Below are positions 27,922 to 28,005 of a DNA stretch of 64,000 nucleotides, in pieces. Positions within the stretch are counted from its first letter, which is position 1. Each line of letters starts with the position of its first letter. The stretch lies in NCBI GenBank assembly GCA_965203325.1, contig OZ241875.1, positions 3,296,001 through 3,360,000 on the forward strand. The letters are read 5' to 3'. Source of the stretch: a bacterium (GTDB lineage: Bacteria; UBA8248). The notes under the pieces were generated by a model. That model saw nothing but the letters and a program-made list of their open reading frames with translations. It had not been told where the DNA came from and did not search any database. The position numbers were made by a program, and so were the translations under genes.

Positions 27922-28005
27922 ATGCTCCCCGCCCGTGCGGGGATGAACCGCGTCATGTCCTGCCGATATGCCGTATGTATTGGAGTTCCCGCCGCCCGGT
28001 ATCCG
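27922..28005 (+). CRISPR. orphan type I-E-like repeat, 32-bp spacer and degenerate second repeat
   Basis: ATGCTCCCCGCCCGTGCGGGGATGAACCG (29 bp), then exactly 32 bp, then GAGTTCCCGC... Confidence 0.75.

Follow-up and report, generated by a model that had tools for sequence, protein, structure and literature searches.

Degenerate terminal repeats and orphan array remnants are familiar features of chromosomal CRISPR loci, in which the last repeat is degenerate at its 3′ end. Repeat material on mobile elements has been described in other terms. Camara-Wilpert et al. (2023; PMC10651486) describe solitary repeat units as RNA anti-CRISPRs (Racrs), with 90 such units in PLSDB and 2,103 on viruses; 83% of the prophage units match the subtype of the host, and the detection pipeline drops units associated with partial repeats. 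CRISPR mini-arrays on mobile elements form a second group, most of whose known spacers target related elements (PMC11656645), and a third comprises the crRNA-like regulatory RNAs CreA, CreR and crlRNAs (10.1101/2024.12.27.630466, 10.1101/2024.10.29.618823). In conjugative transfer, relaxase genes typically belong to the lagging region, and it is the leading region next to oriT that is enriched in anti-defence genes (Samuel et al. 2024; PMC11541004).

Here we compare with these systems a repeat-spacer unit in a 64,000-nt stretch of bacterial DNA, the whole of which we call the window. A first-pass annotation, made from the letters alone, had taken it for an orphan type I-E unit on an element whose own Cas system is I-B, and had suggested that the element may inhibit or redirect a host I-E system; it named the decayed trailer of a lost array as the case that would speak against this. 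The unit and its surroundings are made up as follows.

9093..10490, + strand: P4-type tyrosine integrase, in the left conserved flank of the variable cargo, syntenic with genome G022
12784..20708, + strand: cas operon of type I-MYXAN (an I-B variant; NCBIfam typing), in the variable cargo
21172..23272, no strand assigned: CRISPR array of the I-MYXAN system with 36-bp repeats, not related to the I-E repeat
27690..27775, − strand: tRNA-Leu(UAA), a diverged second copy in the cargo (Rfam)
27776..27921, + strand: upstream flank of the repeat, of which the first 51 nt correspond to the upstream region of the tRNA-Leu paralog
27922..27950, + strand: intact type I-E CRISPR repeat of 29 nt, ATGCTCCCCGCCCGTGCGGGGATGAACCG
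27951..27982, + strand: spacer-like segment of 32 bp (50% GC), the canonical I-E length
27983..28020, + strand: pseudo-repeat, a 5′ head of the I-E repeat followed by a different hairpin, CCCGG...CCGGG
28021..28087, + strand: presumed oriT, a non-coding block that is conserved and contains an imperfect inverted repeat
28088..28116, + strand: sigma-70-like promoter TTGAAA-17-TATATT, conserved in related elements
28207..28857, + strand: conserved 216-aa ORF with no family assigned, first gene of the relaxase operon
28857..31826, + strand: TrwC-type (MOBF) relaxase-helicase (PF08751, E 1.8e-79)

Set against orphan array remnants, the window unit shares a last repeat that is degenerate at its 3′ end and a lack of cas genes, and similar stubs occur at loci L019 and L038; it differs in being fixed at the joint of a mobile backbone, with which it travels through at least seven genomes. 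Like a Racr, it has a single repeat of a real subtype, lies between genes on a mobile element (here between the tRNA-Leu gene and the relaxase operon, away from I-E cas genes) and is without cas genes of that subtype. Unlike the reported units it sits on an integrative, relaxase-bearing element and not on a phage or plasmid, and a partial repeat head exactly 32 nt downstream takes it outside the strict solitary definition; it also has no detected promoter and no cognate system in its host. With mini-arrays it has in common that repeat material stands on both sides of a single spacer of canonical length and that its repeat is nearly identical to those of related hosts' systems; it departs from them in that its second repeat consists of a 5′ head only, that the searches found no target and that the spacer is not common to related elements. 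A mini-array repeat is also expected to match the host's CRISPR system, which it does not in this host; the congeners G009, G011 and G020 do have I-E. An array has at least two full repeats, and here there is one (27922–27950), the second being a head only. The unit is thus neither a strict solitary unit nor a mini-array, and only the definition of an I-E repeat fits it. It recalls CreA, CreR and crlRNAs as a degenerate mini-array with one spacer-like segment between repeat-like sequences, and differs from them in that its spacer has no partial complementarity to a promoter (best 22/32) and no cas operon of the same subtype adjoins it. As in the leading-region anti-defence islands, it adjoins the presumed oriT on the side opposite the relaxase gene, whereas those islands hold protein genes with single-strand promoters and the window holds a non-coding repeat. 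Keyword searches of the open literature found no report of an integrative element family in which a repeat unit has a fixed place next to oriT.

The repeat itself is genuine, as had been proposed. It forms a hairpin with a 6-bp stem (CCCCGC/GCGGGG), a CCGT loop and the 3′ handle ATGAACCG, and is identical at 28/29 positions to the array repeat of G011 and at 25/29 to that of G020. In the window the I-E core pattern has one match, where shuffles predict 0.01, and a 26-mer of the repeat has a single match in the whole 4.39-Mb, single-contig genome with up to three mismatches allowed; the next closest 29-mers in the genome differ from it at 7–8 positions. The 32-bp spacer also holds up, having the same length as all 24 spacers of the G011 array. 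The decayed second repeat of the first reading survives in part: the pseudo-repeat begins with GAGTTCCCGCC, which resembles the 5′ head of an I-E repeat, and about 9–10 nt of that head are retained (GTTCCCGCC against GTTCCCCGCC in the repeat), but the remainder is a conserved hairpin of the element backbone, not repeat-like, which folds into its own CCCGG/CCGGG stem. Allowing for no more than one edit, the two strands of the genome together have 3,287 such head motifs, or 3.7e-4 per position, so that chance is an unlikely reason for finding one exactly a spacer length downstream. The unit is, as stated earlier, unrelated to the 36-bp array, and lies just upstream of the mobilization genes, 138 bp before the promoter-like site and 225 bp before the 216-aa ORF.

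The absence of I-E cas genes, first noted for the window, extends to the whole genome. The Cas6e and Cse1 families (PF08798, PF09481) have no matches there, and tblastn with the I-E proteins of G020, verified as such, returned only the I-MYXAN Cas3 at 28% identity, so that Cse1, Cas7e, Cas5e, Cas6e, Cas1e and Cas2e are all missing. Because these genes are absent, the unit is a true orphan in its own host, which holds no I-E locus to be inhibited or redirected. Cognate systems do occur in the genus. Of 22 other genomes of the genus, three (G009, G011 and G020) have arrays with a repeat of the window type, and the core pattern occurs in 8 of 42 family genomes, three of them with arrays and five, the host included, with one or two copies. 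The G011 array has 25 repeats, 24 of which read ATGTTCCCCGCCCGTGCGGGGATGAACCG; GTGTTCCCCGCCCACGCGGGGATGAACCG is the repeat in the arrays of G020, with 72 pattern matches, and of G009, with 412. In G020 the array adjoins a leader and an operon encoding Cse1, Cas7e (CT1975), Cas5, Cas6e, Cas1 and Cas2 (CT1978), as typed with Pfam, and because congener arrays with this repeat adjoin I-E cas genes the repeat type is I-E. An I-E system is present in only one of the seven host genomes of the element family, G020. The proposal that a host I-E system is inhibited or redirected accordingly fails for this host, and keeps some ground in the cognate systems of the genus and of metagenomes that contain relatives of the element.

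The element family consists of integrative mobilizable or conjugative elements. That the unit lies on a mobile element was borne out by an integrase-to-relaxase arrangement syntenic with G022, in which a helicase, the integrase and the relaxase module occur in the same order and orientation at 82–85% identity to the window; the Strawberry-notch-type helicase of the window lies left of the unit, as does the P4-type integrase. Between integrase and relaxase, G022 carries a different 13.5-kb segment with an ankyrin protein, integrase fragments and an IS1595 transposase. Because the flanks are the same and the cargo differs, window positions 10.5–28.0 kb are variable cargo, and the I-MYXAN system (cas6, cas3, cas8a1/cmx1, cas7/devR, cas5/devS, a cas4-cas1 fusion and cas2) is part of it, in agreement with the I-B system initially assigned to the element. 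Left of the unit are also a 251-aa ORF and, besides the tRNA-Leu gene, a 665-aa ankyrin-repeat protein; on the right, the presumed oriT block separates the unit from the promoter of the relaxase operon. The window relaxase has no adjoining coupling-protein gene; the genome has seven TrwC and two coupling-protein genes, the latter elsewhere. Neighbouring ORFs (251, 262 and 216 aa, and two small ones) matched no Pfam, NCBIfam or PHROG family and had no informative Atlas match, an Rfam scan found only the tRNA, and no recognisable acr or aca gene lies within 1 kb of the unit.

Several further features of the element were observed. Two of the seven TrwC-type relaxase genes in the 4.39-Mb genome adjoin a coupling-protein gene, and only the window copy has the I-E unit and its upstream region. 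Ankyrin-repeat proteins are encoded in both cargos (window 24551–26548, − strand, 665 aa; G022 locus L039 9084–10016, − strand, 310 aa), and a RES-domain toxin and Xre-type antitoxin pair (10976–12183, − strand) lies between the integrase and the cas operon. Inverted duplications of 90–94% identity (33021–35232 against 40995–43147; 8636–9073 against 35219–35659) take in the sequence upstream of the integrase and genes for YAcAr/SLOG, DUF4326 and SSB; they look like two related modules placed head to head, an arrangement that is also present in G022.

We then consider how the unit is conserved among related elements. Fifteen places were examined, comprising the window, nine others and further ones, with some loci being the same place fetched twice, and conservation was counted over the 12 copies with an alignable upstream backbone, which do not include the fragment L034. 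An I-E-like repeat lies upstream of the pseudo-repeat in 10 of these 12 copies, at the same place in each. The perfect 6-bp stem is found in three copies, namely the window, L026 (G022) and L016 (G012 contig 2; handle ATGAGCCG). In the other seven of the ten, decay has taken the form of a 1-nt deletion in the stem, an altered handle, inserted sequence or a missing 5′ arm: the three G020 copies (L029, L031, L004) and L030 (G013) combine the stem deletion with the handle AAGCG, and further decay is seen in L024, in L028 (the same as L003, G018) and in L027 (the same as L005, G012 contig 1). All three copies in G020, the only I-E host, are therefore among the decayed ones. The repeat is missing in L007 (G017) and L025, both of which retain the promoter and the relaxase, and no I-E-like repeat was found in the distant loci L032 and L033.

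Homology of the relatives to the window begins at 27982–27992, which is the start of the pseudo-repeat, and runs through the presumed oriT, the promoter and the operon; by sequence, the pseudo-repeat is the first conserved stretch of the oriT/TrwC-relaxase backbone common to these integrative elements. Mean pairwise identity across ten copies is 0.77 for the pseudo-repeat, 0.78 for the presumed oriT, 0.79 for the promoter block and 0.56 for the 5′-UTR. The repeats in the copies are identical to a true repeat at 20–27 of 29 positions, making them about as conserved as the oriT and promoter blocks (0.77–0.79), and their 3′ half, GCGGGGATGAA-CG, is nearly invariant. The spacer behaves differently. 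In the other nine repeat-bearing copies its place is taken by a mutually conserved segment of about 80–85 bp (shorter in L024), to which the window spacer has no homology, and a metagenomic variant, X3, has 106 other letters there; the spacer is thus not conserved in related elements. Because relatives keep the repeat and a different segment follows it, the unit is the local form of an old, conserved backbone feature with a lineage-specific spacer.

Two observations on these copies stand apart. Relatives of the 216-aa ORF and backbone (L024, L025, L028, L032, L033) come from assemblies titled as different phyla (Alphaproteobacteria, Nitrospinota, Gammaproteobacteria, Thermodesulfobacteriota), which means that the element moves across phyla or that some bins carry wrong labels; the L028 sequence is that of the G018 locus in the window genus. 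In the relaxase-operon 5′-UTR (28121–28206), a conserved stem GGGAGC...GCTCCC encloses a variable insert, which the window lacks and which L026, L024, L016 and the X3 contig have.

The repeat marks the joint between cargo and backbone of the element variants. To its right the copies are homologous, and to its left five unrelated contexts were found: (1) a leader-like flank in the three G020 copies, G022 and G013; (2) that of L024 and L028; (3) that of L027; (4) a response-regulator fragment ending at the repeat edge in L016; and (5) the tRNA-Leu flank in the window. The element flank of G020 and G022 scores 10/12 against the G009 leader (right-anchored; 14–22 of 2000 shuffles were as good), which equals the score of true I-E leaders against each other. 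For the window flank the score with the G020 leader is 9/12, matched by 60 of 2000 shuffles, and similarity to the leaders of G011 and G009 is not significant; beyond its first 51 nt, the flank is only marginally similar to true I-E leaders.

Metagenomic contigs give a further view of this joint. The unit occurs without any difference in contigs of runs X1 and X2, which belong to one study. A 7,855-nt contig from X3, of another study and recorded as a sponge metagenome, matches window positions 27000–27950 with 16 differences and one gap; after the repeat it has its 106 letters where the window has 45, and then resumes the backbone with 22/125 and 88/761 differences. The two sequences are about 98% identical up to the last base of the repeat and 82–88% identical beyond, and because identity drops right there, a recent recombination breakpoint is located at the repeat. 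The difference in length of 61 nt equals one repeat plus one spacer. Read depth over the repeat rises to 126 in X3 and 232 in X5 against 4–26 beside it, and the repeats in X5 are spaced 32 nt apart; because of this rise and spacing, the communities of X3 and X5 contain true arrays with the window repeat.

Other I-E remnants occur in the family as solitary repeats or two-repeat stubs beside truncated IS genes (L038, L019), L019 being a two-repeat stub with a 32-nt spacer, and because of these finds such relics can be called common in the family. As a separate observation, gene fragments stop exactly at the 5′ edge of an I-E repeat in three places: a response regulator in L016 (G012 contig 2, near 482,256), an IS4-like transposase in L038 (G020, near 1,486,769) and an IS3-like OrfB in L019 (G029).

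Two ideas about the ends of the element found no support. Integration into the tRNA-Leu gene was rejected in view of the lack of a tRNA repeat in the window and of a tRNA beside eight related loci, and the tRNA-Leu is also a diverged paralog of a chromosomal gene. That the I-E repeat is an element terminus or att site is not supported, given that synteny with G022 crosses the repeat, with the integrase on one side and the relaxase on the other. The tRNA-Leu(UAA), together with 51 nt upstream, is 80% identical to the chromosomal gene at about 3,901,830–3,901,915; its Rfam score is only just over the cut-off, and it has two non-standard pairs.

Several approaches were used to look for signs that the unit is expressed, structured or targeted. 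First, a consensus scan, which can miss real promoters and which finds the relaxase-operon promoter in all three copies scanned (window, L026 and L029), detected no sigma-70-like promoter ahead of the repeat in any of them. Second, although the centroid fold retains the repeat hairpin, the 141-nt RNA (27880–28020) is no more stable than its shuffles (z 0.41). Across ten copies, 49 of 54 cells are paired compared with 91.4% in shuffles, the changes are all one-sided and no compensatory pairs support the hairpin; an apparent G-U 'rescue' is expected anyway from C-to-T changes opposite a G-rich arm. Third, the spacer search suggested at the outset yielded no target: with up to three mismatches, 42 family genomes contain only the unit itself, blastn against phages and plasmids gave chance matches (E 0.2–9), and IMG/VR and the JGI metagenomes, searched with every sixth base free, gave none. 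The best partial self-target is 22/32 in the genome, at chance level, with none in the window. Copies of flank plus repeat were absent from the JGI metagenomes and the exact 26-mer from IMG/VR; no similar oriT region was found among PLSDB plasmids, where a 46-nt repeat-like match to a Streptomyces plasmid was the only one. Lastly, 191 congener spacers (67 from G020, 24 from G011 and 100 from one array of G009, a genome with about 412 repeats) were compared with the window, 20 related loci and the own genome. None matched over more than 23 nt and none matched the element family, the best (22/23) lying outside the window at about 1.72 Mb of the genome. Because these spacers miss the element family, there is no sign of the pressure that a decoy would relieve, although the remaining G009 arrays may contain spacers that match.

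Without Cas6e or Cascade, a detected promoter or a target that could be found, the unit has no CRISPR role in its own host. The reading we favour, with confidence about evenly divided between acceptance and doubt, is that the unit is an inherited remnant of an I-E mini-array at the cargo/backbone joint, inert in this host. An ancestor of the element family would have carried I-E CRISPR material in a cargo slot beside oriT, and cargo turnover would have left only the repeat closest to the backbone and, now part of the backbone, a terminal repeat in degenerate form; in the window this remnant would take the form of a repeat, a 32-bp spacer and a repeat head. We favour it because seven of the ten repeats are decayed, including the three in the only I-E host, because promoter, target and cognate Cas proteins are lacking, and because other I-E stubs are common in the family. 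The decayed trailer of a lost array, initially set down as the opposing case, fits at least as well as inhibition or redirection. What can be seen of its effect concerns the DNA itself: the repeat marks the place of cargo exchange between element variants and probably provides the short shared homology for it. Several points weigh against the remnant. More decay would be expected of a purely neutral relic than is seen in a repeat as conserved as the oriT and promoter blocks and more so than the 5′-UTR; the pristine window copy with its exactly canonical spacer suggests recent contact with I-E adaptation machinery or a live array; and the 61-nt difference of X3 would fit a live mini-array.

Because I-E systems with the same repeat occur in the genus and in communities that contain relatives, a role outside this host is plausible. 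The main rival, which we regard as possible though doubtful, is accordingly a Racr-like RNA decoy: a + strand transcript of the repeat would be made when the element enters an I-E recipient, and Cas6e would bind and cut its hairpin. The upstream piece would tie up Cas6e, and the downstream product, an 8-nt handle with 32 nt and a hairpin-less tail, would nucleate aberrant Cascade sub-complexes, lowering interference against the incoming element. This ranks first among the rivals because the repeat is conserved like its neighbouring blocks, the window copy is pristine and cognate systems are around. It would account for a solitary, intergenic I-E repeat that keeps its position in 10/12 copies with a nearly invariant 3′ half, in a genus where 3/22 other genomes have cognate I-E and alongside true same-repeat arrays in X3 and X5; the Racr report (PMC10651486) shows solitary units acting in this way and occurring on plasmids. 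By the general rule (Samuel et al. 2024; PMC11541004), the side of oriT opposite the relaxase is the leading region, so that the unit would enter first, and a T-strand, if it is the − strand, would template RNA of + sense. A decoy is harder to reconcile with the missing upstream promoter-like site (3/3 copies scanned), an own host without I-E, three decayed copies in G020 as the only I-E host of seven, a hairpin with no covariation support and a fold z of 0.41, the failure of all 191 spacers of G009, G011 and G020 to match the element family and the lack of acr or aca genes within 1 kb.

Elements of both accounts could be joined, a combination that we consider unlikely: the repeat would be a maintained backbone module that serves as a leading-region decoy transcribed from the incoming strand, forms a cargo-swap joint through which whole CRISPR-Cas modules such as I-MYXAN are exchanged, and still acquires spacers in I-E hosts. 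Such uptake may explain the 32-bp spacer of the window and the variant in X3 that is 61 nt longer.

Two further possibilities are less likely than a remnant or a decoy. That the unit works as a mini-array, with one crRNA loaded into a host I-E Cascade and directed against a competing element or repressing a promoter, strikes us as highly improbable. The order of repeat, 32-nt spacer of canonical length and repeat head is what such a unit would look like, one- and two-spacer mini-arrays on mobile elements are known to exploit host systems (PMC11656645), and the 61-nt difference of X3 fits spacer turnover; but a second repeat without a Cas6e hairpin makes normal 3′ processing and Cas6e capping impossible, no collection searched held a protospacer (the best partial match in the own genome being 22/32), relatives hold a conserved segment of about 80 bp and not a variable spacer, and no promoter was found. 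It is just as improbable that the GC-rich hairpin, its likeness to a CRISPR repeat being only historical, was co-opted as a DNA element accessory to oriT, for example to bind a relaxosome accessory protein: it does stand at the distal end of a similarly conserved non-coding region of about 170 bp, but the 3′ handle and not the stem is best conserved, several copies have lost the 5′ arm or are shifted in spacing by 50–60 nt from the presumed oriT, and L007 and L025 lack the repeat with promoter and relaxase intact.

Most likely, then, the unit is an inherited remnant, one that could conceivably retain a decoy function in other hosts. What is known of solitary repeats and mini-arrays comes mainly from phages and plasmids; here one is tied to a fixed cargo/oriT joint in a family of integrative, relaxase-bearing elements, which moves among the genomes of a genus that has cognate I-E systems. 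An active unit would place an RNA anti-CRISPR in what is presumably the leading region of an element transferred by conjugation, and the element would bring in one CRISPR-Cas type as it weakens another. As a relic, the unit would caution against taking every orphan repeat on a mobile element for a counter-defence device; it would also mean that the cargo slot has repeatedly held CRISPR material, and that a 29-bp repeat can be the seam along which element variants recombine.
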